Assembly: GCA_963768715.1 (NCBI GenBank)
Contig: CAVYJC010000011.1
Span: forward strand, 4,050 to 68,049
DNA: 64,000 nt
Direction: 5' to 3'
Source of the DNA: an uncultured Bacteroidota bacterium
GTDB lineage: Bacteria; Bacteroidota; Rhodothermia; Rhodothermales; DATKEJ01
In this document: piece after piece, positions 22,570 through 50,209 of the stretch
Layout: each line of letters starts with the position of its first letter
Position numbering within the stretch: position 1 is the first letter of the stretch
Translations under genes and position numbers: made by a program
Notes under the pieces: model-generated
Database searches by the model: none
What the model was told of the DNA's origin: nothing
What the model saw: the letters and a program-made list of their open reading frames with translations, nothing else

Positions 22570-24491
22570 ACGTTGTTCGATCGGTCGACGTCAGGCATGA
22601 ATTGGTCGGGATCGATCTCGACCTTGGTCACGCTTCCAGCGGGGAAGGTCAAGGTGGCCTCTCGATTTCCGGCGAGCCAGACCTTCACGTCGACGCGCTG
22701 GCTTTCCTTTTTGCCATCCGCATAGGTTACCGTGACAGGAGCGGGCATCGTCGAAAGGCCCAGGTCGCGGATCGTAACGTTGACGCCGTCATCGCTCGAA
22801 TCGACGGAGGCCACGGCCTGATCAAGCGTCCACGTTTCATAGAACGCGGATCGCCAGAACCAGTCCATGTCCTCTCCGGTCACGTCTTCGAACGTATTGA
22901 ACAGATCGTACGACGTCGGATGTTTGAAGGCCCAGCGGCGGGCGTATTCCTTGAACGCTTTGTAGAAGAGGTCTTCTCCGAGCAGGCCGTTCAACGCGTG
23001 CAGCATGACCGCCGGTTTGCTGTACGACGCGATGCTGTAGGCCTCGGTACCGAAGGGATACTCGTCTGAGTGGCGCATCGGGGCGACTTCGTAACCGCTG
23101 CCGGCTATCCGATAATAGGCTTGCCGTTCGGGGTCCCAGACGTTCGGATCGTGGTTGAAATCCACGTTTCCGTTGCTCTGATTGAAGGAGGTCAGGCCTT
23201 CATCCATCCAGGCATTTTCTTTTTCGTCCGACCCGACGATCATCGGAAACCACATGTGCCCGATCTCGTGGTAGGTGACGCTGAAGAGTCCGCTTTCAGA
23301 TCGGCCTCCTCCGATGAGCGTCATCATCGGATATTCCATCCCGCCCCGGATGATGCCTTCGACGGTGGTCATGTGCGGCCAGGGGTAGGGGATGACGTCC
23401 TTCGAGAGATTCTCGATGGAGAATTTTCCGAACTCCGCCGAACGATGCCAGGGTCTCGCCTGCGGACGGTAGAATGCATTGATTGCGACGTGGTCTGATT
23501 TCCCGTCGTTGTCGCGATCGGGAACTACGGCGTGAGTGGCGTCCCAGACGTAGGCGTCGGACAGACCGAATGCGAAGTCACGGACATTGCTCGCCGTGAA
23601 GTGCCAGGTTGCGTTACCGGTATTCGTCGGTACGAAGGCGGAGTCGCGATTATCGTCCGTCACGATATTCACGACATCCGAATCGGTCGCCGCTTGCGCG
23701 AGGCGCCCCAGCACTTCCGGAGTCAGGATCTCCTCCGCATTCTGGAGGACGCCGGTTGCCGGTACGAGGTAGCCCTCAGGCACCGTGACGCGGACATCAT
23801 AGTCGGCGTAATCCATGTAGAACTCACCGGTACCCATGTAGCGATCGAGGTCCCATCCGTCACCAAATCCTGGGCCACCCGTAACATCATCATATACAGC
23901 GACTTGAGGATACCAGTATCCAAGATAGAAGACCTGGCCGTCGGTGCCCATCCTCATATTGGAGGAGGATGCCGGGATGGGGAAGTCCCAGCAGAATCGC
24001 ATGTCGACCGATCCGCCGGGTTCAACGGGATCGACCAGATTGATGACCATTTTTGTCCCGCTGATCACGTAGCCGTCGAGCCGCGGGTCGCCCTGCTCGA
24101 TGATCGGCTTGTCGTTGACGGAGGCGCACGAGAGGTTGATGCCTCCTGTCGTGACGGTGTTCCGATCGCGGATCTCGCCTTCACGGTAGAGATTCTGGTA
24201 GAGGTTCAGCACGAGACGATGGAGGACGTCGGGGGAATTGTTGTGATACGTGACTGACTCGGTGCCGCCGAGCTCAAAGGAGGCCGGCGATACGGTCACG
24301 TCGATGTCGTAGGCCGCGGTGTTGGTCCAATAATGCGGACCGGGTTTCCCGTCGCGGCTGCGGGTGCCGTTCTCGACGGCGCGCTTGAACTGGGGTGTTT
24401 CGAAGACGGGATAGGGGAGCGGGCGGGTGCCCTGGCCGAAAGCGGTTCCAGCCGTAATCAGCAGAACGGCCGCGGAAAGAGAAAGTCGCAT
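22545..24491 (-). CDS. M1-family zinc metallopeptidase
   Basis: 'VTYHEIGHMWF...WMDEGLTSF' (HExxH + E). Signal peptide MRLSLSAAVLLITAGTAFG at 24491. The ORF extension to 24752 is a translation of repeat elements. Confidence 0.85.
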   Translation of the reverse strand: MRLSLSAAVLLITAGTAFGQGTRPLPYPVFETPQFKRAVENGTRSRDGKPGPHYWTNTAAYDIDVTVSPASFELGGTESVTYHNNSPDVLHRLVLNLYQNLYREGEIRDRNTVTTGGINLSCASVNDKPIIEQGDPRLDGYVISGTKMVINLVDPVEPGGSVDMRFCWDFPIPASSSNMRMGTDGQVFYLGYWYPQVAVYDDVTGGPGFGDGWDLDRYMGTGEFYMDYADYDVRVTVPEGYLVPATGVLQNAEEILTPEVLGRLAQAATDSDVVNIVTDDNRDSAFVPTNTGNATWHFTASNVRDFAFGLSDAYVWDATHAVVPDRDNDGKSDHVAINAFYRPQARPWHRSAEFGKFSIENLSKDVIPYPWPHMTTVEGIIRGGMEYPMMTLIGGGRSESGLFSVTYHEIGHMWFPMIVGSDEKENAWMDEGLTSFNQSNGNVDFNHDPNVWDPERQAYYRIAGSGYEVAPMRHSDEYPFGTEAYSIASYSKPAVMLHALNGLLGEDLFYKAFKEYARRWAFKHPTSYDLFNTFEDVTGEDMDWFWRSAFYETWTLDQAVASVDSSDDGVNVTIRDLGLSTMPAPVTVTYADGKKESQRVDVKVWLAGNREATLTFPAGSVTKVEIDPDQFMPDVDRSNNVWEASSTN

Positions 24492-24603
24492 GTGTCCAAT
24501 TCCTCCGGAATGCGTGCGCGAGGGGATAAATCCATTCTTACCAAATATCTGGGTAGGAGATACACACGCGGGGATAAGAAACTGTGAAAGAAGAACGTCC
24601 GGG

Positions 24604-24624
24604 GTCCGAAGTCCGAAGTCCGAG
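24604..24624. repeat. tandem heptamer array (GTCCGAR)x3
   Basis: gtccgaa gtccgaa gtccgag. Confidence 0.85.
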
Positions 24625-24638
24625 TGCGAGACTCCGCC

Positions 24639-24748
24639 CGTCATCCCCGCGGAGGCGGGGATCCAGGGAAGTGTAATGAGGAATGCGGAATGATGAACGC
24701 GGAATGGCTTCCGCCGGCTGAGCAAGTCGCTTCGCGTCGGGAATGACA
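24639..24748. repeat. 110-bp inverted-repeat element (CGTCATCCCC ... GGGAATGACA)
   Basis: Termini are reverse complements. Internal hairpin tccccgcggaggcgggga. A half-element follows at 24755-24790. Confidence 0.65.
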
Positions 24749-24844
24749 CCAACTGTCATCCTGAGCCCGACTTCAGTCGGGTGAAGGACCTAAGGGTGCA
24801 ACTCGAAGAAGTGTGTGCCGGGCGATGCAATGGCGCTAATGTTG

Positions 24845-24909
24845 CGTCATCCCCAAAGAGGTCCCTCCTTCCTCTCCCGACTACGTCGGGATCGGTCGTC
24901 GGGATGACA
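24845..24909. repeat. 65-bp inverted-repeat element (CGTCATCCCC ... GGGATGACA)
   Basis: Same termini and the shared 'tccctccttc' core as the element at 42161-42217. Internal hairpin cccgactacgtcggg. Confidence 0.7.
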
Positions 24910-25253
24910 AGCGCCGGCCCTAACAAACGCGCGGGCACGACGGTTCAGGCCGCGATCGTTGCCCGCGCGACAGCGCCACACGGTCCCCCTCCATGAGGGG
25001 GCGGCTAAGGCCGAATTTATTCGGGTGCAGCCGGGGGAGGTCGCGTCCGGATAAACCGCCACACGCAGCTGGGGGAGGTCGCCACCGCCACCAATCTCTG
25101 GGTCAGCGTCAGGCGAACGGCCATTTGATCCGGCTCCGCCCGTCGTCGTATCACCTATATTCGTTAAGGCGGCAATCGCAAGAGAACGAAGTCCGCCGCA
25201 TTGGAAGCAAGCCTATTGACATCGGCTATCGGATAACGCCACCAGCAATCACT

Positions 25254-26546
25254 ATGAACGTCGACGCCATATTGGAACAGGATATTTCCCGGCTTTCCCC
25301 TGTCTGGGGACGCATAACCGATCTCGTCGTGGAGCGAGGGGAGGGATGCTTCGTGTATACGGTCGACGGCGAGCGATACCTGGATTTCACGAGCGGCATA
25401 GGGGTCACCAATACAGGCCACTGCCACCCCAGGGTAGTTCGTGCGATTCAGGAACAGGCGGCACGAATCATACATGCCCAAGTCAACTGTTACTTCCACC
25501 CAGCGCTCATTCGACTGGCACAGGCGCTCGATAGCGTTACGCCGGCTCATCTGGACACTTTCTTCTTCTCCAACTCCGGCGCTGAAGCCGTGGAGGGTTC
25601 TGTAAAACTCGCGCGCCACGCCACCGGACGCACCAACATAATCGTCTTTCAGGGGAGTTTTCACGGCCGTACCAGTCAAACGATGGCAATGACGTCCTCG
25701 AAAACAATCTATCGCGTCGGCTATCAGCCACTGCCGGGGGGCGTCTTCGTGGCGCCTTTCCCCGACCCGTTCCGTCATCGTATGAGTGAGGAAGACGTCA
25801 GCGCATGGGCGCTGAAGGAGTTGGATCTTCTCCTGCATTCGCAAACGGCGCCGGGAGAAACGGCCGCGATAGTGATCGAGCCGGTCCTGGGCGAAGGAGG
25901 GTACATCCCTGCGCCGGTCCCGTTCCTCAAGGGACTGCGCCAGGTATGCGACGAGCACGGCATCCTCCTGGTCATGGACGAGGTCCAGAGCGGATTCGGG
26001 CGTACGGGATGGTTCTTTGCGCACGAATACGCAGATGTGAAGGCCGACGTGGTCGTCATGGCTAAGGGGATGGGGAGTGGGTTTCCGATCTCGGGGATCG
26101 CCTCTACCAAGGAAATCATGGGGAAGTGGCAGCGCGGCGCTCACGGTGGCACCTACGGAGGCAATCCAATCGGCTGTGCTGCAGCGGAAGCCACAATCGG
26201 CGTTCTCCTCGACGAAGGCCTTATTGACAATGCGGCTGCGCGTGGCCGCCAACTTATCGAGGGACTGCGCGAGATACAGGCACGTTTCCCGGCACTCGGC
26301 GACGTGCGCGGCCTCGGCCTGATGATCGGCTGTGAGTTTGTCAATCCTGACACAGGCGAACCTGATGGGCAACTCGTGAATACAATACTACGTCACGCTC
26401 GCGAAGAAGGCCGCCTGCTACTACTTCCATGTGGAACCTATGGCAACGTGGTCCGCTGGATTCCGCCGCTGGTGGTCACCGACCGTCAGATCGCCGAGGC
26501 ACTCGATACCTTTGAAGAGGCTATGAGCGCTTCCGTACGGCCGTGA
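25254..26546 (+). CDS. class-III PLP aminotransferase (GabT / diamine-omega-aminotransferase family)
   Basis: 'GIGVTNTGHCHPRVV', 'LVMDEVQSGFGRTG', 'VVMAKGMGSGFP'. ATG at 25254. The upstream ORF extension is Arg-rich and lies on repeats. Confidence 0.85.
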   Translation: MNVDAILEQDISRLSPVWGRITDLVVERGEGCFVYTVDGERYLDFTSGIGVTNTGHCHPRVVRAIQEQAARIIHAQVNCYFHPALIRLAQALDSVTPAHLDTFFFSNSGAEAVEGSVKLARHATGRTNIIVFQGSFHGRTSQTMAMTSSKTIYRVGYQPLPGGVFVAPFPDPFRHRMSEEDVSAWALKELDLLLHSQTAPGETAAIVIEPVLGEGGYIPAPVPFLKGLRQVCDEHGILLVMDEVQSGFGRTGWFFAHEYADVKADVVVMAKGMGSGFPISGIASTKEIMGKWQRGAHGGTYGGNPIGCAAAEATIGVLLDEGLIDNAAARGRQLIEGLREIQARFPALGDVRGLGLMIGCEFVNPDTGEPDGQLVNTILRHAREEGRLLLLPCGTYGNVVRWIPPLVVTDRQIAEALDTFEEAMSASVRP

Positions 26547-26586
26547 TCGCGATTAAAGTAAGTTCTGAACTCAACACGTATTTTGT

Positions 26587-27483
26587 ATGACACCTTTTGC
26601 GATTGCAGGCGTCCAGATGAGGGTTTCGGCGGCGGAGCACAATTTGCCGGCAATGATCAGGCGCCTGGACACGCTGATGGGGCTCTATCCGTGGGTTCAG
26701 ATGGTGGTCTTCAGTGAGCTGGCTATCTGGGGTCCGATTCGTGCGAAGGCGCAGCGCATTCCAGGTCCCGCGGAAGAGGCGTTTCGGAAGATGGCCGCCA
26801 AACATCGCATCTGGCTGATCCCGGGCTCCCTGTACGAATACGTCGGGAATCGTGTCTACAATACAAGCCTGGTCGTCAATCCGGACGGCGAAGTGGTCGG
26901 TCGATACCGAAAGATGTTCCCCTTTCGGCCCTACGAGGTCGGTATTACTCCGGGAGACCAGTTCCTGGTTTTCGACGTGCCCGACGTCGGCCGGTTCGGT
27001 TTGTCGATCTGTTACGACATGTGGTTTCCCGAGACCACCCGCACACTTGCTGTGATGGGCGCCGAGGTCATTCTGCACCCATCGTTGACAGGCACCGTCG
27101 ACCGTGATCTCGAGTTGACAATTGCGCGTGCGAGCGCCGCGACGAATCAGTGTTATATATTTGATATTAATGGACTTGGAGATGGTGGCATTGGACGTTC
27201 GATCGTTTGCGGTCCCGAAGGTGCCGTCGTCCACCAGGCGGGCGATAACGAGGAATTCATCCCAATCGAGATTGACCTGGACCGTGTGAGGCGCAGTCGC
27301 AGCCACGGCATCATGCGGCTTGGACAGGTGCTGAAGAGTTTTCGCGACCGGTCCGTCGAATTCTCAATCTATCAGCCAGGCGTCCGCCATCCGTTTCTCG
27401 ATGAGCTTGGACCGCTGGAGGTACCCAAGAGGAACGATCGCAAGGAGGTCCCCCAGGACCTGCTGAACGCCGACGGCCTGTAA
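26587..27483 (+). CDS. carbon-nitrogen hydrolase (nitrilase superfamily, amidase-like branch)
   Basis: Glu-Lys-Cys triad contexts 'VVFSELA', 'YRKMFPFRPYE', 'GLSICYDMWFPE'. Confidence 0.8.
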   Translation: MTPFAIAGVQMRVSAAEHNLPAMIRRLDTLMGLYPWVQMVVFSELAIWGPIRAKAQRIPGPAEEAFRKMAAKHRIWLIPGSLYEYVGNRVYNTSLVVNPDGEVVGRYRKMFPFRPYEVGITPGDQFLVFDVPDVGRFGLSICYDMWFPETTRTLAVMGAEVILHPSLTGTVDRDLELTIARASAATNQCYIFDINGLGDGGIGRSIVCGPEGAVVHQAGDNEEFIPIEIDLDRVRRSRSHGIMRLGQVLKSFRDRSVEFSIYQPGVRHPFLDELGPLEVPKRNDRKEVPQDLLNADGL

Positions 27484-27545
27484 AGTTGACGCCGCCACAC
27501 GCGGGCGCAAGACCGCTTCGAGAAGAACAAGGATAACGCTAAACC

Positions 27546-30422
27546 ATGCTTGACAATAAGACCGGCACCGGCACCGCCAAGGTGCGCAGCCTCAGCCGCT
27601 ATTACAACGCTTCACAACTCCGAATCGATACCTGGAACCGCTTGAAGGATGCAGCCAAGCGATTGGGTGATCGACAGAAGACCGGGGCAGACGTCTCAAG
27701 CCTGCGGCGATCCGTTGCTGAGCTCTTCTCGATTGTGTCGCCGATTGAATGCTACTGGGCGTTTCCCGGCAAGGACATACTCGATCAATTGCAAGAACTG
27801 TTTGAGCAGAAGGACTATGGGCCGTTCGCGACTGCGGTTGGGACCGTCGTTCGACAGTTGGTCAGCGAGTCCTATCGCACCCGGACGGGGGGCTGGCACG
27901 CGACCGGTTCCGACAAGGTGGGCGGGCGCGTCTTGTCCGGTCGGGGTGAGGGTTCGGGCAATGCGGCGGACCACCATTATTTCGAGGTGCTTTTCGTCGA
28001 CAACCTGCCGGTCGACGAGGAGCGGGCCCTGCGCAAACGGATGCGGGAGATCGGCGACCCGGACGACCGTTTCGTTTATGACATCGTCGTCGTCAAGAGC
28101 CTTGAGGATGCGCTCATGGCGGTCATGCTCAACTACAATATCCAGAGCTGCGTAATCCGCCAGAATTTTCCGTTGAGGTCGAAGAACCGCCTCGAGATCC
28201 TCCAGCCGTACCTGTCGGAGATCGAAAAGGCCGGTCTCGATGCGACGAGCGAAGTCGACCTCGGTCCGGCTCTTGCCCGGATTATCAAACGACTGCGACC
28301 CGAGCTCGACCTCTATCTCGTAAGCGACGCCGGCGTCGAGGAGGCTGCCAGTGAAGGGCACCAGGCCTTCCGTCGGATATTCTACCGGCAGGAGGACTAT
28401 TTCGAGCTGCATCTCAGTATTCGGCGCGGCATCATGGAGCGTTACGAAACGCCCTTCTTCTCCGCTTTGAAAGCGTACAGCCAGCGGCCCACCGGGGTTT
28501 TCCACGCGATGCCCATTTCACGGGGGAACTCGATCTCCAAATCCCACTGGATCCAGGACATGGGCCGGTTCTACGGCCGCAACATCTTCCTGGCCGAAAC
28601 ATCCGCGACGACGGGCGGTCTCGATTCGCTTCTTCAACCCACGGGCACGCTCAAAAAGGCCCGCGTGATGGCCGCCCGCGCGTTCGGGGCGCAGCAGACT
28701 TTTTTCGTCACCAACGGCACCTCCACGTCGAACAAGATCGTCCTGCAGGCGCTCGTCAAGCCGGGCGACACGGTGCTGGTTGACCGCGACTGCCACAAGT
28801 CGCATCACTACGGACTTGTCCTATCGGGAGCGCTGCCGGTCTACCTGGACTCTTATCCTGTCGCCGCGTATTCCATGTACGGGGCGGTTCCCCTCCGTGA
28901 GATCAAGAAGAAGCTCCTCGAGCTCAAGCGGGCCGGACGGTTGGACCAGGTCAAAATGCTATTGCTGACCAACTGCACGTTCGACGGCATTGTTTATAAC
29001 GTCGAACGGGTCATGGAGGAAGTGCTCGCCATAAAGCCCGATATGATCTTTCTGTGGGATGAGGCCTGGTTCGGCTTCGCCCAGTTTACGCCGACCTATC
29101 GCCGGCGAACCGCCATGTCGACCGCCGCGCGCCTGCAAGAGCGGTATCAGAGCCAGGATTATCGCGCGCGCTACGCCAAGTACAAGGCGAGCTTTGACGA
29201 GCTCGATCCGGACGACGATGCCACATGGCTTGACCAGCCATTGCTGCCTGATCCGGATCGCGTGAAGATCCGCGCATACGCTACGCAGTCCACGCACAAG
29301 AAGCTCTCGTCATTGCGCCAGGGCGCGATGATTCATGTATACGACGAGGAGTTCAAGCGGAAGGTGGAGGACACGTTCCACGAGGCGTACATGACCCACA
29401 CCTCGACCTCGCCCAACTATCAGATTCTGGCGTCGCTGGACGTCGCTCGGCGTCAGGCCGAGCTCGAGGGTTTCGAGCTGGTACAGAAGAGCGTCGAAAT
29501 GGCTATGACGCTGCGCGCCAAGATATCGGAGCATCCCGTGCTGAAGCGATATTTCGAGGTGTTGACCATCCGAGACCTGATTCCCTCTGCCTACCGATCT
29601 TCCGGGCTGGAGCAGTACTTCGACCCGGAGGAAGGCTGGAGCCGGATGGAGGAAGCGTGGCGGACGGATGAGTTCGTGCTGGATCCGACACACATCACAC
29701 TGGCTGTGGGCAAAGCGGGGATCGATGGCGACACGTTCAAGGGCCGGTACCTTATGGATCAGTTCGGAATTCAGGTCAACAAGACCAGCCGGAACACGGT
29801 GCTGTTCATGACGAACATCGGCACGACACGGAGTTCGGTCGCCTACCTGATCAGCGTACTGGTCAAGATCGCCGAGCAGCTTCGCGCGGAAGAGCTCTCG
29901 TTGAATCCGACGGAAGCAGACCTCCACAAGCAGCGAATTGTATCGCTCACTGAGAAGCTGCCGCCATTGCCCGATTTCAGTCGATTCCATGCGGCCTTTT
30001 CTCCCAATCCGGGGACGCCCGAAGGGGACCTGCGCTCCGCCTTCTTTATGGCCTACGACGAAACAGCCTGCGAATATCTCAAAATGGACGGCTCGATAAG
30101 CGAAGCGATCGTATCCGGACGTGAAGTGGTATCGGCCTCGTTCATCATCCCGTACCCTCCCGGATTCCCGATCCTGGTGCCCGGACAGGTCATCAGCGAG
30201 GAAATTCTGGCCTTCATGCACGCACTCGACGTCAAGGAAATCCACGGCTACCGACCCGATCTGGGACTTCGAGTTTTCACGGAGGCGGCAATGAGAGCGG
30301 TTTCCGCAAAGCGCGCACATGCCGGGGAGCGCGGCGACGGCAATATTGAGCCGGCCGAGCCTGTGCTCGCCCCTCCGCGCAGGCGTGGCAGCAAGGCGGG
30401 CGCCACCTCCGACGTAAACTAA
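27546..30422 (+). CDS. Orn/Lys/Arg decarboxylase family (fold-type I, wing-domain type), unusually long at 958 aa
   Basis: 'FHAMPISRGNSI', 'FFVTNGTSTSNKIV', PLP-Lys context 'YATQSTHKKLSSLRQG'. CheY-like wing 'YFEVLFVDNLP...IVVVKSLEDALMAV'. Confidence 0.85.
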   Translation: MLDNKTGTGTAKVRSLSRYYNASQLRIDTWNRLKDAAKRLGDRQKTGADVSSLRRSVAELFSIVSPIECYWAFPGKDILDQLQELFEQKDYGPFATAVGTVVRQLVSESYRTRTGGWHATGSDKVGGRVLSGRGEGSGNAADHHYFEVLFVDNLPVDEERALRKRMREIGDPDDRFVYDIVVVKSLEDALMAVMLNYNIQSCVIRQNFPLRSKNRLEILQPYLSEIEKAGLDATSEVDLGPALARIIKRLRPELDLYLVSDAGVEEAASEGHQAFRRIFYRQEDYFELHLSIRRGIMERYETPFFSALKAYSQRPTGVFHAMPISRGNSISKSHWIQDMGRFYGRNIFLAETSATTGGLDSLLQPTGTLKKARVMAARAFGAQQTFFVTNGTSTSNKIVLQALVKPGDTVLVDRDCHKSHHYGLVLSGALPVYLDSYPVAAYSMYGAVPLREIKKKLLELKRAGRLDQVKMLLLTNCTFDGIVYNVERVMEEVLAIKPDMIFLWDEAWFGFAQFTPTYRRRTAMSTAARLQERYQSQDYRARYAKYKASFDELDPDDDATWLDQPLLPDPDRVKIRAYATQSTHKKLSSLRQGAMIHVYDEEFKRKVEDTFHEAYMTHTSTSPNYQILASLDVARRQAELEGFELVQKSVEMAMTLRAKISEHPVLKRYFEVLTIRDLIPSAYRSSGLEQYFDPEEGWSRMEEAWRTDEFVLDPTHITLAVGKAGIDGDTFKGRYLMDQFGIQVNKTSRNTVLFMTNIGTTRSSVAYLISVLVKIAEQLRAEELSLNPTEADLHKQRIVSLTEKLPPLPDFSRFHAAFSPNPGTPEGDLRSAFFMAYDETACEYLKMDGSISEAIVSGREVVSASFIIPYPPGFPILVPGQVISEEILAFMHALDVKEIHGYRPDLGLRVFTEAAMRAVSAKRAHAGERGDGNIEPAEPVLAPPRRRGSKAGATSDVN

Positions 30423-30438
30423 ACTGATAACTCATTTT

Positions 30439-31894
30439 ATGATGGCTTCCAAGCCCCTTCGCGGCGTATCCGACATCCGCCGGTTTTTCTATCGTAACGA
30501 GACGCCTGTCTACTTTGTCAGTGCGACCAATTTCAACCTGCTGGGGGCGGACGAGTGGGTTAGGGGATTCAGGTTCATATCCTACATCGACTGCTTCGAC
30601 GGGCAGCATCCCAGCGTCTTCGTTCCAAAGGAGATGCCGCATGACACGTTCGAAAGCATCGAAGACATCAATCGGTACCTGCTCGAACACAAGGAGGTGG
30701 CCGACTACATCGGCAGGCGGGGTGAGGGAGGGAAGGTGCTGTTTTTGATGTTTGACGAGCAGACGGAAGACCTGGCCCGCGATCTTGGGCTCGAGGTTTG
30801 CTTTCCACCGGCCAAGCTGCGCCAGTACCTCGACGACAAGGTGACGACGACCCGCGTAGCAGACAAGGCCGGCGTACCGAGCGTCCCGAACGTCCTGGCC
30901 AAGGTCGACAGCTACGAAACCCTGCGTCGTGTTTCGGCGCCCCTGGGCAAGGACCTCGTCATACAGACTCCTTTCGGAGACTCGGGCCACACGACCTTTT
31001 TCATATCCGACGAGGACGACTGGAACGAGCACGCGTCGGAGATCGTGGCGGAGCCCGAGGTCAAGGTGATGAAACGTATCCGATGCCGCGGCTCGGCCAT
31101 TGAGGCCTGTGTGACCCGCCACGGCACCATCGTCGCGCCGCTCATGACGGAGCTTGTCGGCTTCAAGGAACTCACGCCGTACAAGGGAGGCTGGTGTGGA
31201 AACGAGATCTTTGCGGATACCTTCACGAGCAGTATCCGGCGTCAGGCGCGCAAGTATACGCAAGCGATGGGGGACCAACTCAGGGAGGAAGGCTACAGAG
31301 GCTATTTTGAGCTCGACTTTCTAATCGATGAGGACAGCGGGAAGCTCTATCTGGGTGAGCTAAATCCCCGTATCACGGGAGCGAGCTCCATTACCAACCA
31401 TGCCGTCTTTGCATTGGCGGATGCACCCCTGTTCATGTTTCACTTGCTGGAATGGTTCGACGTCGATTACAAGCTCAGCGTCGTGGGGATCAACCGACGC
31501 TGGGCGCGGCCGGAAAACATCGACACCTGGAGCCAGCTCGTGATCAAGCACACGGAAGACACCGTCGACGTCATCAAGAAGGCGCCGCCGACCGGTATAT
31601 GGAGCATGGAAAGGCGACGGGAGCGTCCATTTCGCACGCTTCGACACGCACCGACGGGCGGTCGAAAGCGAGTCTGAGGCTTTCTTTTTGCGCATTGCGG
31701 GGGCGGGCGACTATCAGTATGAAGGCGCAGATCTGGGCATTCTCGTCACGCGCGGGCGCTTGATGACGGATGACTTCCAGCTGAACGAACGGGCGCAGGC
31801 GTGGATTCGAGGCATCAAGGGCCATTTTGCAACGGGCGAACGCAGCAAAGTGGAGTACGTACCCGCCGAAGTCGGCAGTTTCAAGATGCTGTAG
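30439..31894 (+). CDS. ATP-grasp ligase, with an apparent 1-nt insertion near 31606-31614
   Basis: 'VIQTPFGDSGHTTFFI', 'GYFELDFLIDEDSGKLYLGELNPRITGAS'. The track ORF ends in Arg-rich junk (..MERRRERPFRTLRH). Shifting frame gives ..WSM-KGDGSVHFARFDTHRRAVESESEAFFLRIAGAGDYQ.., which runs into ORF 31688..31894. Confidence 0.7.
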
Positions 31895-31900
31895 CAGCGA

Positions 31901-32878
31901 ATGGATCTGCGTTTCGTATCGATATCGGAGGCGAGGCCGGGTCCAAAGTGGCAGGCGGTTTTTGAGCGTCACTGGCCGGCGTACAAGAAATGGTTTCTCT
32001 CGGAGGGTCACCGTGCCCGTCCCGGATACCAGAGCTCGCTGAAGGCACTCCGAAACCACATGCCCGAGCTTGTACCGATTTACGAGTCGCTCGTCGAGCT
32101 TGCCGGAGGCGGCGACCTCGAGGCGAGATTTCTGAGCTTGTATTGTCCGCCGCCTTACCTCTCGGGCTGCTCGCAGGCTGTGTGGTCGCGGGATCGGCCG
32201 GTCCTCGTGAGGAACTACGATTACAGTCCGCGACTCTTCGAAGGGCGACTGCTCCGCACCGAGTGGCGTCGGCCCGTGATTTCGGTGATCGACTGCCTCT
32301 GGGGCGTACTCGACGGTATGAACGATGCGGGGTTGGCGGTGTCCCTTTCGTTCGGAGGTAACAAGACCGTCGGGGAAGGCTTCGGCGTCCCGCTCATCCT
32401 GCGCTACGTGCTGGAAACCTGTGACGACGCCGAGTCAGCGTCCAAAGTCCTGCAGCGCATTCCCACGCACATGCATTACAACATCACCGTGGCAGATCGG
32501 GAGGGGACGTTCTTCACCGCGCACCTTGCTCCCGACCGACCGGCAATCATCAGGGCTGAACCCGTCAGCACGAATCACCAGGACCGGGTCGAGTGGGATG
32601 ACTATGCTCGGATGACGACGACCGTCGAACGGAAGGAACATCTCCAGGCGCGGCTGGCCGATCCGGAGGAAACCGAGCAGACCTTCCTCAACCGGTTCCT
32701 CGAACCGCCGCTGTACAGTACCCGGTTCGACAAAGCATTCGGAACGCTGTACACGGCTGCCTACTATCCAGAGACCCTCGAGGCCGAGTACCGCTGGCCC
32801 GGCGGCCGGAGCCTGCGGCAGTCTTTCGAGAATTTCAAAGAGGGGACGACGGTCATCCGGTTGAAGCGGGCCGCTTGA
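31901..32878 (+). CDS. peptidase C45 / acyl-CoA:6-APA acyltransferase-type Ntn hydrolase
   Basis: 'YLSGCSQAVW' (nucleophile Cys context), 'VRNYDY', 'LDGMNDAGLAVSLSFGG', 'YNITVADREG'. Confidence 0.7.
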   Translation: MDLRFVSISEARPGPKWQAVFERHWPAYKKWFLSEGHRARPGYQSSLKALRNHMPELVPIYESLVELAGGGDLEARFLSLYCPPPYLSGCSQAVWSRDRPVLVRNYDYSPRLFEGRLLRTEWRRPVISVIDCLWGVLDGMNDAGLAVSLSFGGNKTVGEGFGVPLILRYVLETCDDAESASKVLQRIPTHMHYNITVADREGTFFTAHLAPDRPAIIRAEPVSTNHQDRVEWDDYARMTTTVERKEHLQARLADPEETEQTFLNRFLEPPLYSTRFDKAFGTLYTAAYYPETLEAEYRWPGGRSLRQSFENFKEGTTVIRLKRAA

Positions 32879-32880
32879 CG

Positions 32881-32978
<98 letters not shown>

Positions 32979-33126
32979 ATCATCCAGCATTCATGATTCG
33001 GCACGGGGAGTCGGTTGCGGAACCTTAGAGGATACGCGTACCTTAAATGCTCGCTCGTCAAGAGCCTTCGTAGGATGATGCCGGGGGCCTGCCTCGGCGT
33101 AGCCGAACGGAGTGAGGCGAAGACGG

Positions 33127-33213
33127 GCCCAAGTGGCGGAATTGGTAGACGCGCTACGTTCAGGGCGTAGTGGCCTTATGGCCGTGGAGGTTCGAGTCCT
33201 CTCTTGGGCACCA
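33127..33213 (+). tRNA. tRNA-Leu (anticodon CAG), type II with long variable arm, CCA encoded
   Basis: Acceptor GCCCAAG/CTTGGGC; anticodon stem CTACG/CGTAG with loop TTCAGGG; variable arm TGGCCTTATGGCCGT; T-arm GGAGG-TTCGAGT-CCTCT; ACCA end. Confidence 0.9.
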
Positions 33214-33249
33214 GAAAACTGCAGACACCAAATTCAAACACCAAAGTTG

Positions 33250-33275
33250 GGGCACGCCGACGGCGTGCCCTTTTT
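33250..33275 (+). terminator. rho-independent terminator after tRNA-Leu
   Basis: GGGCACGC-cgacg-GCGTGCCC followed by TTTTT. Confidence 0.75.
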
Positions 33276-33577
33276 GGTTGTTCGCTGAACCTGATCGGTC
33301 TGCCTGCCGGGATCTAGCAGCACCCCCGTTGCTCAACGTCGGTAGCCAAAACGACAACCCGGCTCCATGCTTACCTAACCCAGCCCCACGGCTCTACTCG
33401 GAGCGAACAAAACCTGCCTCCGTCGGTCAAAACAGCCTTTGGACCAGTGCGCGTTGGCTGAGACCATGGAGAAACAAGCACGGATACGAAAACAGGTCGG
33501 CTCGAACAAGTCGCTGACTCCATTACAGCGGGCCTTCCTCCTGAGAACACTGATCCTTCCGTTCACAAAAGCAGATC

Positions 33578-35376: not shown

Positions 35377-37938
35377 TCATCGAACAATCGTCATCGCTCC
35401 AGAACGCGTTCCCAAATCACTGACCAATTCGTAGAAGAATACTCCAGCTTGGCAACGAACCTCGGCACGATCCGATACGAATGAGATACCGGCGTCAAGC
35501 ATTCCCAGTGATTCCTGGCGCAATCTCCGGCCGAGCGGATCAATGATCAACAGACTAACGGTTGTTCGGCGTGGCAAGCTAAATGGAATGCTTGTGCTTT
35601 GATTGAATGGGTTCGGGTAGTTGCTATCGACAGTGAACCTTTCCGGGACTTCGAGTTCATTATCGGTCGCGGTTCTTGTCGGATAGCCTTCGTCAAAAGC
35701 TTGTCTCACCTTCGTGGCTGAAGTGCGCAAGCTCGCAATGGAGTCGAAACGATCATTTCCTTGGGCCCAGATGATTGCCAGCGTCACATTACGAGTTTGT
35801 CCAGGATGCAGCGAGAAGGGTCCCAATGAAGCAACGAAACGCCTTTCGCCCGGCTGGTTCCTCGTCCCGGCACCGTCAATGTTCGCCTCACTCCAAAAGT
35901 TTGGCGGTATACCTGTGTACATGAGGGTCGTCGGCGTCCCGTCTTTCCCGTCACCGCCAAAAGTCAGCGCTGAACCGTCTCGCCATTTCCCGCTGAGATA
36001 CTGGTAGGCTTCTTGACCAGACGTCGGGTTGCCGAACGACGAGTCGTCATCACGATATGCTATGAAGCGGGTCAAGCCGATCGTCTCATCGGCCTCGTCC
36101 ACCTCCCCGTCATGATCGTTGTCAACCCCATCATCGGCGACGTTTACGCCTTCAAGTGCAACTACTCCCACGGCACTGGGTGTGTCCCCATAACCGTATT
36201 CGCCTCCATCGAAGTTGTCTCCATTCCAAACGAATGCAATTCCGTTTGTTGAATCAAATCCAACGTAGTCGTCGGTTGGGTCACCGAGAGCCGCGTCCAC
36301 CCAGAGTCCGAGAAACACTGCGCCCACGCTCGTTCCCCCTTTGTGCTCCAGAACGAGGTTGAGGAGAATCGAGTTGTTAATCGCAGATTGTTTGCTCAGC
36401 GAAGCATACGCAGTGCCCCTCACCTCCAGTCCAATCGGTGAAGTCCCTGACCAGTCATGTTGATTTCCGGCATCATTCATCACCCACCAGATTGTCTGGT
36501 CGCCCTTGAGCTGCGGTCGATCACCGTTGGCAAGATTATAGTTGTTCGGGTTACCATCTCGATCAACCACTGGAGCGCCCAATTGGTAAGGCCAGTCTGC
36601 AAGATCTTGCGACGCGGCACCCGATGACTCGTATTGGCGTAGATCTTCCACGCTGACTTTGAAGATTCGGTCGTATGATGAACAGTCATCCGACGGCTCG
36701 CCGTCCGAATCGAGCGGACCGGGGAAGAACTCCCATGGCCCGAAATCTGAGGCGGCAACTCGAAGCTCCTTTTCAATCAAACCACCTACCCAGATTCCCC
36801 CGATCGATAACGCTTGGTGTCCTGATCCGACAGGAACCTCGAAATATGGTGGTTGCAGGGAACTGTTTCCGAACAGACTGCCGTTGTTGAAAATGGTGGT
36901 TTGGACGTTGTTTGCATCGAGTTGATGACTCGCGGTCGCGGGCTCGCAACTCCCAACTGGCACTGGCGTCGGCATGCGATTTGGCACTCCTATAGTCTGC
37001 AAGCCGATGTCCCACGCTCCAGCGCCGATCCCGTCGTCGAATCTCGAGAGGCTCCGGCCGGGAGGCGCTACAACTGCTGCCTCCCCTTCGATCCACAGCC
37101 CTGCAGCAGTGGCTTGTTGCTCTCTCGAATGGGCGCCCTCACCGTAGGCCAGGTAGTCAACAAGAATCCCGGGTGACTGATCCTCGTTTCCCTCGTACAG
37201 AGCAACCTCGTCGCTCTCAGAGTCGAGCTGGTCGAAGATCGAGACGAAGAATCCACCGGGGCTGACGAGCATCGAATTGGTCAGCCGGCCGAGATCGCGA
37301 ATTCGAGAACAGTCCGAACCATTGCATATCCACCACAGGGAAAGATCGATTTCGCCTGTCCCTGAGTTGAGCATCTCGACATATCCGTGCTCGATGTCGA
37401 TTTCATTAAGTTGCATGATCGGTACCGGCCGCTCATTCGCGGAGCCGAGAGTAGGCAAACCTTTGCTCCAGGAAGCAGCGCCCGGTGCAGTTGCGAAACG
37501 CGACATCGTCCAACCAAAGCCAGGTCTTGCGACCGACTCGCCAGTTGTCCAGAGTCCCGCCTGGGCGGCAAGGGGTTCTCGTGTGTTTGTGCCTGCGCCG
37601 TAGCGGAGGTAGTCGGCCAATGAGCCAGAGTCAGAGAAGTTGGGTCCGACGTAAAGTGCGACCTCACCGTTTGCTTGCAAATCGGGGAAATCGATCACCA
37701 CGAACAGGTCGGCAATGATACTCGTCGAACCCACGCTAATCGCGAGTGTCCCAATCTGTCGGCAATTGGAGGAGTTGCAGAGCCACCAGTTGGCGACGTC
37801 TTGCGTGGTTGCTCCAGCATTTCGTAGCTCGACCCGCTTCTCATCCAGACTGACCTCGTTGAGAACAACCTGGGCTCGAGCCAGACGTACCGATCCCGCA
37901 ACAGAAAGAATAACGATTAGGACCGCGACGCCTCTCAT
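35377..37938 (-). CDS. large secreted protein with two lamin-tail-domain-like repeats and a T9SS C-terminal domain
   Basis: 'VVLNEVSLDEKRVELRNAGATTQDVANWWL' and 'IMQLNEIDIEHGYVEMLNSGTGEIDLSLWWI'. CTD 'NYPNPFNQSTSIPFSLP...GVFFYELV'. Confidence 0.7.
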   Translation of the reverse strand: MRGVAVLIVILSVAGSVRLARAQVVLNEVSLDEKRVELRNAGATTQDVANWWLCNSSNCRQIGTLAISVGSTSIIADLFVVIDFPDLQANGEVALYVGPNFSDSGSLADYLRYGAGTNTREPLAAQAGLWTTGESVARPGFGWTMSRFATAPGAASWSKGLPTLGSANERPVPIMQLNEIDIEHGYVEMLNSGTGEIDLSLWWICNGSDCSRIRDLGRLTNSMLVSPGGFFVSIFDQLDSESDEVALYEGNEDQSPGILVDYLAYGEGAHSREQQATAAGLWIEGEAAVVAPPGRSLSRFDDGIGAGAWDIGLQTIGVPNRMPTPVPVGSCEPATASHQLDANNVQTTIFNNGSLFGNSSLQPPYFEVPVGSGHQALSIGGIWVGGLIEKELRVAASDFGPWEFFPGPLDSDGEPSDDCSSYDRIFKVSVEDLRQYESSGAASQDLADWPYQLGAPVVDRDGNPNNYNLANGDRPQLKGDQTIWWVMNDAGNQHDWSGTSPIGLEVRGTAYASLSKQSAINNSILLNLVLEHKGGTSVGAVFLGLWVDAALGDPTDDYVGFDSTNGIAFVWNGDNFDGGEYGYGDTPSAVGVVALEGVNVADDGVDNDHDGEVDEADETIGLTRFIAYRDDDSSFGNPTSGQEAYQYLSGKWRDGSALTFGGDGKDGTPTTLMYTGIPPNFWSEANIDGAGTRNQPGERRFVASLGPFSLHPGQTRNVTLAIIWAQGNDRFDSIASLRTSATKVRQAFDEGYPTRTATDNELEVPERFTVDSNYPNPFNQSTSIPFSLPRRTTVSLLIIDPLGRRLRQESLGMLDAGISFVSDRAEVRCQAGVFFYELVSDLGTRSGAMTIVR

Positions 37939-49164: not shown

Positions 49165-49168
49165 TCTG

Positions 49169-50209
49169 ATGGAGACCCTCTGGTTCTGGCTCCTGACCTG
49201 GGTTATTGCCACGTACGTTGTGCTCGACGGGTTCGATTTCGGCGTCGGCATCATTCATTTGTTCGTGGCGCGGAACGAGGCCGAACGCGCCCAGGTGCTG
49301 CGATCGATCGGGCCCGTATGGGATGGAAACGAAGTCTGGCTCATCGTCGCGGGAGGGACCATCTTCTTTGCGTTCCCCAAACTCCTGGCCGTCTCGTTCA
49401 GCGGCTTCTACCTCGCGCTCATGCTCGTCCTGTGGCTCCTCATGTTTCGGGCGCTCGGCATCGAGCTCCGGCACCAGGTGGCCGATTCGCTCTGGCGACA
49501 ATTCTGGGATGTGGCATTTGCCTGGTCAAGTGCATTGTTGGCGCTCTTCCTGGGAGCCGCGCTCGGAAACCTCGTGCGGGGCGTGTCGATGAACGAGGAC
49601 GGGACCTTTTTTGCACCCCTGTGGACCGACTTCACTGTCGGCCAGAACGTCGGCATTCTCGATGTCTTTACGATTCTTGTGGCGGTTACGGCTGTCGCGT
49701 CCCTGGCGCATCACGGGGCCCTCTGGTTAAGCGCCCGAACCGATGCGTCGGTGGAACGTCGCGCACGCCGAGCCGCATCGATTCTCTGGCCTGTCGTGGC
49801 GCTTCTGGCGATCGCAACCACCGTCGCAACCTTCTTCACTCAGGAGAACGTCGGGTTGAATGTCTTCGAGATGCCGGTCGGCCTGATTCTCGCGGCCGTT
49901 GCACTGGTAGCTCACGGCGGCGCATTGGTCTTCAGAATGCGTGGAAAGGCGATGTGGGCCTTCCTTTCATCGGCCGCGTATCTGTACGGGATGGTAGGTT
50001 TGGCGGCCTTTGGCATGTATCCATTCGTGCTTCCCGCCAGGAATCCCGCTTTTGGGCTCACGATCCAGGATGCGGCGGCGCCCGCTGCCGGACTGGAGAC
50101 AGCACTCTTCTGGTGGATTCCCGGGATGCTCCTGGCGTGCGCCTACGCCGTGTACGTGTATTCGAGCATGCCGCGGACGTTCTCAGTACACGACGGTGAC
50201 GGCCACTGA
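49169..50209 (+). CDS. cydB: cytochrome bd ubiquinol oxidase subunit II
   Basis: 'YVVLDGFDFGVGI', 'GPVWDGNEVWLI'. Starts 4 nt after cydA. Confidence 0.9.
   Translation: METLWFWLLTWVIATYVVLDGFDFGVGIIHLFVARNEAERAQVLRSIGPVWDGNEVWLIVAGGTIFFAFPKLLAVSFSGFYLALMLVLWLLMFRALGIELRHQVADSLWRQFWDVAFAWSSALLALFLGAALGNLVRGVSMNEDGTFFAPLWTDFTVGQNVGILDVFTILVAVTAVASLAHHGALWLSARTDASVERRARRAASILWPVVALLAIATTVATFFTQENVGLNVFEMPVGLILAAVALVAHGGALVFRMRGKAMWAFLSSAAYLYGMVGLAAFGMYPFVLPARNPAFGLTIQDAAAPAAGLETALFWWIPGMLLACAYAVYVYSSMPRTFSVHDGDGH

Follow-up and report, generated by a model that had tools for sequence, protein, structure and literature searches.

A five-gene operon conserved across bacterial phyla as a probable module for forming, conjugating and recovering GABA

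Among the closest described counterparts of the operon analysed here are two enzymes of Mycobacterium tuberculosis. Rv2531c, a long-form enzyme of the 'KOR family', was shown in 2026 to be a Mg-dependent decarboxylase that converts L-glutamate to GABA and feeds the GABA shunt; it was inactive on Lys, Orn and Arg and showed hysteresis, its K0.5 of 509 mM for free glutamate is very poor, and its deletion abolished labelling of free GABA from glutamate, with only GABA altered (PMC13506015). Because of this K0.5, the true or preferred substrate of Rv2531c may differ from free glutamate. Its structure is available (PMC12329521; PDB 9N0N, 9N0O and 9N0P). Rv1722 (GabtS; UniProt P71980), annotated as a '(biotin) carboxylase', is an ATP-grasp enzyme that joins GABA and trehalose with ATP to form 6'-O-GABA-trehalose, and the purified enzyme takes free GABA (bioRxiv 10.64898/2026.04.15.718621). 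The product of the neighbouring gene, Rv1723, is an SXXK hydrolase of beta-lactamase-like type (bioRxiv 10.1101/2025.02.25.640225). [quoted passage not shown]

The window, a 64-kb stretch of DNA from an uncultured Rhodothermales bacterium, carries five same-strand ORFs, confirmed at 25254-32878 (all +) from the ORF list. These encode a class-III aminotransferase (25254-26546, +; Pfam Aminotran_3), a CN-hydrolase (26587-27483, +; Pfam CN_hydrolase), a four-domain, long-form OKR_DC_1 PLP decarboxylase of 958 aa (27546-30422, +; phmmer, Pfam), an ATP-grasp ligase (30439-31894, +; NCBIfam NF005096/PRK06524; 484 aa once corrected for a 1-nt insertion) and a C45/AAT Ntn (Cys) hydrolase/acyltransferase proenzyme (31901-32878, +; NCBIfam NF040521, Pfam AAT). 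The mechanical ORF of the aminotransferase opens at 24993, and the start at 25254 was favoured by the Pfam match and by an orthologue (L001). A preliminary description of this DNA had named five + strand genes and their families; the ORF list bears out the genes, Pfam and NCBIfam searches agree on the families, and each motif it quoted (DEVQSGFGRTG, KGMGSGFP, YRKMFPFRPYE, STHK and SGCSQ) was found in the translations. The intergenic distances that it gave as 40, 62 and 16 nt are correct to the nucleotide, and the 6-nt gap is true only with the ATP-grasp insertion corrected.

Upstream, an intergenic leader of ~760 nt (24492-25253) extends from the operon to the probable true start of a divergent M1-peptidase gene, which was placed by a signal-peptide-like MRLSLSAAVLL inside ORF 22545-24752 (-). 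The leader gave no Rfam match and no sigma-70-like promoter by consensus scan; it had been called repeat-dense, and was found to hold only a few short direct or tandem repeats. A tandem heptamer array (CGAACAT/CGAACAC, 13.6 copies, 32879-32973; Tandem Repeats Finder score 127-141) begins immediately 3' of the C45 stop codon and is followed by a tRNA-Leu with anticodon CAG (33127-33213, +; ARAGORN), both as previously described. 3' of the tRNA lies a strong hairpin that resembles a terminator and is followed by a T tract (33249-33281, +; consensus scan); its 10-bp stem contains 8 G-C pairs and precedes TTTTTGG, and it is likely to mark the 3' end of the transcription unit. No SSADH, permease or ~136-aa small protein gene was found with the operon in the 64-kb window.

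The gene order aminotransferase, CN-hydrolase, decarboxylase, ATP-grasp, C45 was seen at 80 genome loci that span at least eight phyla, with members in Bacteroidota, Gemmatimonadota, Planctomycetota, Chloroflexota, Deinococcota, Alpha- and Gammaproteobacteria and Eiseniibacteriota. The decarboxylase gene was upstream of the ATP-grasp gene in 68/70 loci, the C45 gene was downstream of it in 57/68 and absent from 11/68, and the complete five-gene set was present in 38/51. Chance juxtaposition, which the preliminary description had left as a possibility, is clearly ruled out, since dozens of genomes across many phyla show this order; the five-gene operon is real and conserved. Translational coupling or overlap is frequent between the decarboxylase and ATP-grasp genes, and in related loci the CN-hydrolase gene is usually translationally coupled to that of the aminotransferase. 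Of the five proteins, the ATP-grasp is the most conserved, with identities of 65-88% across phyla. Genes recurring with the set encode an SSADH-like ALDH (36 loci), a small protein of ~136 aa (34 loci) and, within the cluster, an APC amino-acid permease (14 loci). On plasmid p1 of Roseobacter ponti, a gene named gabT by PGAP lies a few kb upstream of the genes for the CN-hydrolase, the decarboxylase, a 'biotin carboxylase' and the C45 protein, and after the cluster come genes for an ABC transporter of the peptide type and two binding proteins. No published description of the five-gene cluster was found in the literature.

The decarboxylase matched the OKR_DC_1 major domain (PF01276) with 268 bits (cut-off 27) and aligned with Rv2531c (PDB 9n0n/9n0o/9n0p) by phmmer at E 3.5e-267, residues 13-925 on 13-910, with 46.8% identity over 896 aligned residues. 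The extra N-terminal domain and the four-domain architecture of the Rv2531c type are shared end to end. Lys585 of the STHK motif aligns with the PLP lysine K570 of Rv2531c, and the equivalents of H405, K406, K570, R576, T606 and N731 were invariant in 68/68 cluster decarboxylases. Five of the six proposed glutamate-binding residues (H405, K406, R576, T606, R718 and N731) are invariant in all 68; R718, a second-shell residue, is conservatively changed to Lys in 65/68. Assignment to the characterised Lys/Orn/Arg decarboxylases (LdcC/CadA, AdiA, SpeC/SpeF) was rejected: the best NCBIfam score, on the LdcC model, was 227 where the cut-off is 968, and the others were lower. The cluster enzyme is a probable L-glutamate decarboxylase of the Rv2531c type, as judged from its sequence. 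It shares only 47% identity with Rv2531c and has R718 changed, which is a caveat on glutamate as the substrate.

As encoded, the ATP-grasp ORF ends at a stop at 31677, and the final ~68 codons of the gene are found in a different frame (31688-31894). When the DNA was aligned with that of two orthologues, the window showed a surplus base near 31605-31611, and the two fragments matched NF005096 at positions 13-404 (655 bits) and 428-483 (72 bits). This frameshift had been missed in the preliminary description, which took the gene as uninterrupted; a full-length ligase and a 6-nt gap to the C45 gene are obtained only after the 1-nt insertion is corrected. Either the sequence is in error at this point or the gene has been inactivated by mutation. 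In a Rhodothermales MAG (L088), which is the closest relative, the gene is uninterrupted (483 aa), and an intact, 88%-identical orthologue (P0001) scored 783 bits on NF005096 against a cut-off of 684. The protein carries the ExNxR acyl-phosphate signature and a conserved ATP-binding Lys, and K209, E291, E307, N309 and R311 were invariant in 80/80 orthologues. An AF2 model (pLDDT 79.7) gave a biotin-carboxylase-like fold with 13-14% identity to solved biotin carboxylase structures. A true biotin carboxylase (AccC/PC) was rejected at no more than 35 bits against NCBIfam cut-offs of ~600-1100, and no BCCP or carboxyltransferase gene was present beside the ATP-grasp gene in annotated or scanned loci.

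Divergent ATP-grasp clades adjoin genes for amide hydrolases (M20, GATase and C45). In an actinobacterial NF005096 clade (Allobranchiibius, Microlunatus), a PF00144 serine hydrolase gene is directly downstream in 42/54 loci, a pairing that mirrors Rv1722-Rv1723 because Rv1723 is an SXXK hydrolase. The link between the NF005096 family and Rv1722 is circumstantial, by annotation and gene context, and Rv1722 might belong to another ATP-grasp family.

The aminotransferase scored 423 bits on Pfam Aminotran_3, and its top NCBIfam models were PRK08117 (526 bits) and GABA transaminases, all below cut-off; on TIGR00700 (GABAtrnsam) it reached 402 bits against an equivalog cut-off of 506.65. A Psychroflexus gene in the same slot fell just under that cut-off (501.4). 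The window enzyme represents a separate class-III lineage, ~40% identical to most of the others and 70% to one from Anaerolineales. The dehydrogenases encoded at other loci matched succinate-semialdehyde dehydrogenase models best (NCBIfam). We propose that the aminotransferase is a class-III omega-amine enzyme of the GABA/acetylornithine transaminase group, converting GABA to succinate semialdehyde.

The CN-hydrolase scored 120 bits on PF00795 (cut-off 23), and E44, K109, E117 and C142 were invariant in 60/60 orthologues, with E44, K109 and C142 forming the Glu-Lys-Cys triad. NCBIfam scores were far below cut-off for aguB (85 vs 410), formamidase (76 vs 406), aliphatic amidase (74 vs 427) and deaminated-glutathione amidase (73.5 vs 355), and no equivalog cut-off was reached among the N-carbamoylputrescine amidase, formamidase, aliphatic amidase and omega-amidase branches. 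The best PDB matches reached only ~E 1e-20 to 1e-23, and an entry labelled beta-ureidopropionase was among them. An earlier placement in the aliphatic-amidase/formamidase branch does not hold, the protein being equally poor on aguB, archaeal nitrilase, formamidase and amidase models; it is predicted to be an amidase of an uncharacterised branch. The C45 protein scored 168 on NF040521 (cut-off 85) and 109 bits on Pfam AAT (cut-off 23), and Cys90 of its Gly-Cys nucleophile site (SGCSQ) was invariant in 63/63 orthologues, as were R104-N105-Y106-D107. Amides are the usual targets of C45 enzymes. The sole known product of the putative ligase family is an ester, a mismatch with a hydrolase type that usually cleaves amides.

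The operon is most likely to make GABA from glutamate rather than to handle diamines, and we favour, as the probable reading, a GABA module that combines a shunt with ATP-driven conjugation of GABA and its release by the C45 enzyme. By analogy with its characterised homologue, the decarboxylase would convert L-glutamate to GABA and CO2. The transaminase, going by family and context, would transfer the amino group of GABA to a 2-oxo acid and yield succinate semialdehyde, which the adjacent SSADH-like dehydrogenase of about half of the related loci would convert to succinate; the three activities together would constitute the GABA shunt. The ATP-grasp enzyme may activate the GABA carboxylate as an acyl phosphate and then join it to an acceptor hydroxyl or amine, a step that would resemble that of Rv1722, the maker of 6'-O-GABA-trehalose. 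The co-transcribed C45 cysteine Ntn hydrolase is proposed to cleave the ligase product and regain GABA, so that the conjugate would serve as parked carbon and nitrogen, or as a solute, for later recovery. The CN-hydrolase, predicted to be an active amidase, may perform an omega-amidase-type hydrolysis of an amide that is a substrate or product of the transaminase; alternatively, it may act on an amide precursor to free glutamate or GABA. The preliminary description had also suggested that a solute of the N-acyl-amine or pseudo-dipeptide kind is made and turned over, which fits this module, with the amendment that GABA would be the acyl donor instead of a diamine the acceptor. Against the reading stand the missing SSADH gene, which leaves the shunt of the window incomplete, the frameshift in its ligase gene and the 11/68 loci that have no C45 gene. 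If the reading is right, two tuberculosis discoveries of 2026 would be joined in one widespread, previously undescribed pathway.

Other arrangements of the same enzymes were weighed. Ligation could come before decarboxylation, with the ATP-grasp enzyme linking the gamma-carboxyl of glutamate to an acceptor, the decarboxylase acting on the gamma-glutamyl compound to give a GABA conjugate, and the C45 and/or CN-hydrolase cleaving it. The K0.5 of 509 mM and hysteresis of Rv2531c hint at a better substrate than free glutamate, and both the frequent coupling of the decarboxylase and ATP-grasp genes and the amide hydrolases beside divergent ATP-grasp clades are consistent with this order. It is nevertheless unlikely: purified Rv1722 uses free GABA, trehalose and ATP, loss of Rv2531c ends labelling of free GABA from glutamate, and R576, modelled at the gamma-carboxylate and invariant in 68/68, suits a free carboxylate. 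Catabolism of an imported GABA- or glutamate-containing amide or peptide-like nutrient would instead make the C45 and CN-hydrolase the entry enzymes, with the decarboxylase, transaminase and ALDH burning the product and the ATP-grasp protein in an accessory or salvage role. The presence of two different amide hydrolases, the ABC transporter after the Roseobacter ponti cluster and the APC permease inside 14 others point this way, but a transporter is absent from most loci and ligation at the cost of ATP is unusual for a purely catabolic route. The ATP-grasp protein is moreover the most conserved (65-88%) and the most tightly tied to the decarboxylase, which argues for a central role, and we regard import and catabolism as quite improbable.

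The preliminary description had favoured protection of a diamine or agmatine through acylation by the ATP-grasp enzyme, oxidation of the other amine by the transaminase and removal of the acyl group by the hydrolases, as in the Puu pathway. This logic is coherent, and the Pfam name OKR_DC_1 and the top NCBIfam models (Lys, Arg and Orn decarboxylases) agree with it, but those scores are far under cut-off (227 vs 968) and the sole characterised full-length homologue is inactive on Lys, Orn and Arg. Because that homologue, Rv2531c (47%), acts on glutamate and its key residues proposed to contact the glutamate carboxylates are conserved, a diamine route is distinctly unlikely; the partner enzymes are of GABA-transaminase and SSADH type, and neither a GS-like gamma-glutamyl ligase nor an amine oxidase is present. 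A beta-alanine version of the operon, with aspartate as the substrate of the decarboxylase and with the ATP-grasp, C45 and CN-hydrolase proteins acting in the manner of carnosine synthase, Tan and beta-ureidopropionase, would draw on known family ties: carnosine synthase is an ATP-grasp enzyme, the insect beta-alanyl-amine hydrolase Tan is a C45 protein and beta-ureidopropionase is a CN-hydrolase, and the PDB entry so labelled among the CN-hydrolase matches is in keeping with it. We consider it very improbable given that loss of Rv2531c altered GABA only, that the transaminase and ALDH fit GABA and succinate-semialdehyde enzymes best, and that the CN-hydrolase reaches no equivalog cut-off.

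Set beside known pathways, the favoured GABA module shares with the canonical GABA shunt (GadB, GabT, GabD) the sequence glutamate to GABA to succinate semialdehyde to succinate, with matching transaminase and dehydrogenase types. GadB, however, is a group-II decarboxylase, whereas the cluster enzyme belongs to group III, the OKR_DC_1 fold family, and the canonical shunt has no place for the ATP-grasp, C45 and CN-hydrolase proteins. The E. coli Puu pathway likewise uses ATP-dependent conjugation, oxidation or transamination, and a last hydrolase giving GABA, but the cluster is without GS-like PuuA, the PuuB oxidase and the C26 hydrolase PuuD, and its substrate, unlike that of Puu, is very unlikely to be a diamine. 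Carnosine/homocarnosine synthase and Tan offer an ATP-grasp enzyme ligating an omega-amino acid (beta-alanine or GABA) and a C45 enzyme cleaving beta-alanyl amides; they are eukaryotic, are not encoded together and have no detectable specific sequence relationship to the cluster.

The two mycobacterial enzymes resemble the cluster in different parts. Rv2531c is of the same four-domain length class as the decarboxylase (947 vs 958 aa), aligns with it end to end at 47% identity, retains in common the PLP lysine and H405, K406, R576, T606 and N731, and is similarly tied to GABA-shunt genes. The M. tuberculosis gene stands alone by a toxin-antitoxin pair, while the cluster decarboxylase is in an operon, and the Rv2531c orthologues of M. 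avium and M. lacus have no ATP-grasp gene beside them; R718 is Lys in 65/68 cluster enzymes, which are known from sequence alone. Rv1722, compared by description and gene context, is like the cluster ligase a stand-alone ATP-grasp protein of ~500 aa with a '(biotin) carboxylase' label and weak similarity to real ones, a functional tie to a long-form decarboxylase that produces GABA and an adjacent hydrolase gene, and both families are unusually conserved. That neighbour is the PF00144 serine hydrolase Rv1723 in M. tuberculosis and a C45 cysteine Ntn hydrolase in the window, so the acceptor and the type of bond (ester or amide) may differ between the two systems.

Five ORFs on the plus strand between 25254 and 32878 were matched to Pfam and NCBIfam profiles and belonged to the families named for them in the preliminary description: a class-III aminotransferase (25254–26546; Aminotran_3, 423 bits), a CN-hydrolase (26587–27483; CN_hydrolase, 120 bits), a 958-aa decarboxylase (27546–30422; OKR_DC_1, 268 bits), an ATP-grasp protein (from 30439; NCBIfam NF005096) and a C45 Ntn-hydrolase proenzyme (31901–32878; NCBIfam NF040521, 168 bits against a cut-off of 85). 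All motifs cited there were found in the operon proteins, and the intergenic gaps of 40, 62 and 16 nt were exact. The description was essentially right as an observation; it missed a frameshift in the ATP-grasp gene and overstated the leader. The ATP-grasp reading frame stops at 31677, splitting the gene into 30439–31677 and 31688–31894, and the C-terminal 68 codons (31688–31894) lie in another frame and match the same NF005096 model at positions 428–483. DNA alignment with two orthologues revealed a single-base insertion in the window near 31605–31611, so the 6-nt spacing reported between the ATP-grasp and C45 genes holds for the corrected gene only and not for the gene as encoded. The nearest relative, a Rhodothermales MAG (L088), carries a CN-hydrolase, a 958-aa decarboxylase, an intact 483-aa ATP-grasp protein (88% identical to that of the window) and a C45 protein. 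Either a homopolymer sequencing error or a recent inactivation accounts for the frameshift. A protein recorded from a public contig (P0003) matches the truncated 412-aa product exactly, which suggests that the deposited assembly itself contains the error or mutation.

The leader of ~760 nt, described earlier as repeat-dense, holds merely a few short repeats; it gave no Rfam match, and a riboswitch reading was rejected on this basis. The reported heptamer array 3' of the operon was real (CGAACAT/CGAACAC, 13.6 copies, 32879–32973), with its first base directly after the C45 stop codon, and is followed by tRNA-Leu and, 3' of the tRNA, by a strong terminator-like hairpin. On the minus strand, a mechanical ORF (32435–33061) crosses the array, giving the repeated peptide FDVRCSMFDVRCSVFGVRCS. 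Flanking genes were unrelated to the operon: a divergent M1 peptidase, a P450 and a K+ channel upstream, and tRNA-Leu, a DUF6036 protein and opposite-strand secreted proteins with a T9SS sorting signal downstream. Type IX secretion C-terminal sorting domains were seen in proteins at 35377–37938 (minus strand) of the window and at 11180–11745 of L088; taken with the 88% identity of the ATP-grasp protein to that of the Rhodothermales MAG, they indicate that the window derives from a Rhodothermales or Bacteroidota-like source. The mechanical ORF of the M1 peptidase (22545–24752, minus strand) is extended at its N-terminus across a palindromic element, GTCATCCCCGCGGAGGCGGGGATCC (24640–24664), present in a single copy within the window; the extension is probably spurious, and the signal-peptide-like MRLSLSAAVLL suggests a true start near 24491. 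In the composition profile, the 2-kb bin 48001–50000 stood out by its strong AT skew of −0.239, a value far beyond those found elsewhere in the window.

Conservation of the operon was assessed in 80 loci fetched from species-representative genomes by homologue alignment and analyzed by tBLASTn and ORF clustering, with counts restricted to loci with enough flank. Because the loci chosen are those most closely related to the query, the frequencies apply to this clade rather than to the family at large. The order aminotransferase, CN-hydrolase, decarboxylase, ATP-grasp, C45 was repeated across loci of Bacteroidota (many families), Gemmatimonadota, Planctomycetota, Chloroflexota, Trueperaceae, Alpha- and Gammaproteobacteria and Eiseniibacteriota, and the ATP-grasp family was 65–88% identical across phyla. 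The decarboxylase lay upstream of the ATP-grasp gene in 68/70 loci and C45 downstream of it in 57/68; CN-hydrolase and transaminase were present in 57/63 and 54/63 loci, respectively, and all five genes in 38/51. The five genes are thus co-conserved elsewhere, contrary to the chance juxtaposition that the preliminary description had allowed for. Overlaps of a few bases at many gene junctions point to translational coupling. Two sub-modules, aminotransferase–CN-hydrolase and decarboxylase–ATP-grasp–C45, were at times found apart (e.g., L071, L075, L016 and L047). Recurrent additional genes, all absent from the window, encoded an aldehyde dehydrogenase with best matches to succinate-semialdehyde dehydrogenases (36 loci), a small protein of ~136 aa that matched no family (34 loci) and an APC amino-acid permease (14 loci). 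In loci lacking C45, no substitute hydrolase was found immediately downstream; that slot was occupied by Kelch/T9SS proteins, and an alternative hydrolase there was rejected accordingly, with one such locus carrying an M20 peptidase further downstream. A full-text literature search for a cluster combining ATP-grasp, C45, CN-hydrolase, decarboxylase and GABA returned no description, nor was the cluster described in literature retrieved for PRK06524 and GABA-trehalose. ATP-grasp homologues were also seen on plasmids and megaplasmids of Rhizobium leguminosarum and Sinorhizobium. On the R. leguminosarum plasmid NZ_CP071402.1, the gene just upstream of the ATP-grasp gene encodes a long PLP-dependent enzyme, and IS elements, fixAB, a second ATP-grasp gene and a Glu/Leu/Phe/Val dehydrogenase lie nearby, with no C45. 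The rhizobial homologues could be relevant to symbiotic GABA metabolism.

Of the two readings offered for the operon in the preliminary description, the first was a protect-by-acylation route for diamine or amino-acid catabolism and the alternative was synthesis and turnover of an N-acyl-amine or pseudo-dipeptide solute. Canonical Lys, Arg and Orn decarboxylases matched only the catalytic core of the window enzyme (E 1e-60 or weaker), and the structures 9N0N, 9N0O and 9N0P ('probable amino acid decarboxylase') matched residues 13–925 at E 3.5e-267. These structures are of M. tuberculosis (Mtb) Rv2531c (PMC12329521), the long, four-domain form of the family, which was inactive on Lys, Orn and Arg and, when pure, was a Mg-dependent, cooperative glutamate decarboxylase with a K0.5 of 509 mM; its deletion removed 84% of GABA and all GABA labelling from glutamate (2026 PNAS, PMC13506015). 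The window enzyme was 46.8% identical to Rv2531c over 896 aligned residues. The PLP lysine and the residues highlighted in PMC13506015 (H405, K406, R576, T606 and N731, Rv2531c numbering) were invariant in 68/68 aligned sequences, and R718 was replaced by Lys in 65/68. The sequence-similarity cluster of Rv2531c includes Flavobacteriia, Salegentibacter among them (PMC13506015), and Salegentibacter loci were also among our 80; gene neighbourhoods were not analyzed in either study (PMC13506015, PMC12329521). Taken with the Rv2531c data, these alignments make glutamate the most likely substrate of the cluster decarboxylase. Diamine protection is not supported, the only characterized full-length homologue acting on glutamate and not on Lys, Orn or Arg; conjugate turnover survives from the alternative, with GABA placed at its centre.

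The name attached to the ATP-grasp family is 'biotin carboxylase'. Similarity to biotin carboxylases was weak in sequence (E ~1e-4), and a confident AF2 model gave a TM of ~0.6 at 13–14% identity. No biotin carrier or carboxyltransferase gene adjoined the ATP-grasp gene in annotated or scanned loci, so the name is almost certainly wrong; with neither partner and only 13–14% identity, a true biotin carboxylase was rejected. The ATP-binding Lys and an E-x-N-x-R motif, as commonly found in ATP-grasp enzymes that form acyl phosphates, were invariant in orthologues. In Mtb, the ATP-grasp protein Rv1722, annotated '(biotin) carboxylase', ligates GABA and trehalose with ATP, and its product, 6'-O-GABA-trehalose, reaches millimolar levels under hypoxia or NO; its authors considered GABA-trehalose mycobacteria-specific, left the breakdown enzyme as a question and did not consider gene neighbourhoods (10.64898/2026.04.15.718621). 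The NF005096 family is physically linked here to a homologue of Rv2531c, the GABA-supplying enzyme of Mtb. Both Rv1722 and Rv2531 are in List A (Table 2) of genes horizontally acquired by the ancestor of slow-growing mycobacteria, each flagged with an HGT vehicle nearby (Veyrier et al. 2009, PMC3087520), as would fit descent of the two genes from one such operon. NF005096 also takes in an actinobacterial clade (Allobranchiibius, Microlunatus; ~46% identical, 696–708 bits), for which neighbours were counted in 80 metagenomic loci: in 42/54 loci a PF00144 beta-lactamase-family hydrolase was encoded ≤1.5 kb downstream, 33 of these on the same strand, C45 was present in 21/82, and a long decarboxylase lay directly upstream in 3/44. 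Rv1723, numbered next to Rv1722, is a hydrolase of this kind, an SXXK serine enzyme and poor beta-lactamase (10.1101/2025.02.25.640225). On these four circumstantial lines and a fifth, the matching annotation, size class and weak pyruvate carboxylase similarity, we consider it quite probable that Rv1722 belongs to the NF005096 family. No mycobacterial names were returned among 50%-cluster representatives of the ATP-grasp homologues, no mycobacterial copy was found in PLSDB plasmids, and the metagenome scan with the actinobacterial clade named Microlunatus and Allobranchiibius only. Neighbourhoods of the Rv2531c-type decarboxylase in M. avium and M. lacus showed no ATP-grasp gene beside it, and its 481-aa neighbour in M. 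lacus was a PE-PGRS-like protein. One 90%-identity cluster (proteins from L112 and L166) mixed 531-aa ATP-grasps with many 360-aa members JGI-named 'agmatinase', an unexplained clustering or annotation oddity.

For the window transaminase, the best NCBIfam models were PRK08117 and GABA transaminases, none above cut-off; the Psychroflexus gene in this slot scored 501.4 against a cut-off of 506.65 for a GABA-transaminase equivalog. Two class-III lineages occupy the slot (window and Anaerolineales sequences 70% identical mutually and ~40% to the rest), which suggests that function, not lineage, was retained. By these profile matches, transaminase and dehydrogenase would fit a GABA shunt. On plasmid p1 of Roseobacter ponti, NCBI annotation gives gabT, two other genes, a CN-hydrolase, a 'PLP-dependent enzyme', a 'biotin carboxylase' and a 'C45 family peptidase'; a peptide-type ABC transporter comes next. 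The CN-hydrolase is intact, with catalytic residues E44, K109, E117 and C142 invariant, and no characterized branch was reached with NCBIfam models or PDB matches. With scores far below cut-off, N-carbamoylputrescine amidase and formamidase were rejected, the latter from the aliphatic-amidase/formamidase branch that the preliminary description had likened to it. The CN-hydrolase is tightly coupled to the transaminase and may therefore be an omega-amidase-like partner of it, or an amidase that supplies glutamate or GABA.

Hydrolases adjoined the ATP-grasp gene in three clades: C45 in the window clade, an M20 peptidase, a GATase-like protein and C45 in the high-GC clade of the divergent homologue P0122, and PF00144, at times with C45, in the actinobacterial clade. 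We infer, as the simplest reading, a synthetase paired with its cognate hydrolase. The P0122 contig encodes a divergent, N-terminally extended 648-aa ATP-grasp flanked by the M20, GATase-like and C45 genes, with no decarboxylase, which suggests that the ligase/hydrolase pairing is older than the decarboxylase link. The C45 nucleophile Cys90 and R-N-Y-D motif were invariant in orthologues. Amides are the usual substrates of C45 enzymes, and for this reason the window-clade product might be amide-linked, unlike the ester formed by Rv1722.

Taken together, the operon would comprise a GABA shunt built on the long-form decarboxylase, an ATP-dependent conjugation/deconjugation branch and a CN-hydrolase amidase. 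We tentatively propose, as a possibility that we rate somewhat below its denial, that it is a widespread cycle for making, storing and releasing GABA: NF005096 proteins would be GABA ligases in at least 8 phyla, with conjugates not confined to mycobacteria; the adjoining hydrolase (C45 here, PF00144 such as Rv1723 in actinobacteria) would be the missing conjugate-breakdown enzyme; Rv2531c and Rv1722 of slow growers would derive from such an operon; and the product here may be a new amide-linked GABA compound. If the proposed link to the Mtb enzymes holds, the decarboxylase and ligase activities would trace to a single ancestral operon, with representatives in marine and soil Bacteroidota, Rhodothermales, Planctomycetota, Gemmatimonadota, Chloroflexota, Proteobacteria and others, C45 and, in Mtb, Rv1723 would become candidate hydrolases for conjugate turnover, a source would be suggested for the horizontal gain of both genes by slow-growing mycobacteria, and the annotation of thousands of proteins as 'Orn/Lys/Arg decarboxylase' or 'biotin carboxylase' would need correction. 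Non-pathogenic bacteria such as Salegentibacter, Psychroflexus and Roseobacter ponti would offer tractable systems for working out the chemistry. Rv1722 and the window ATP-grasp are likened by shared annotation, size class, weak pyruvate carboxylase similarity and context, not by sequence; the operon would join two 2026 Mtb discoveries and extend them to many phyla, provide candidates for the breakdown enzyme and expose large-scale misannotation.
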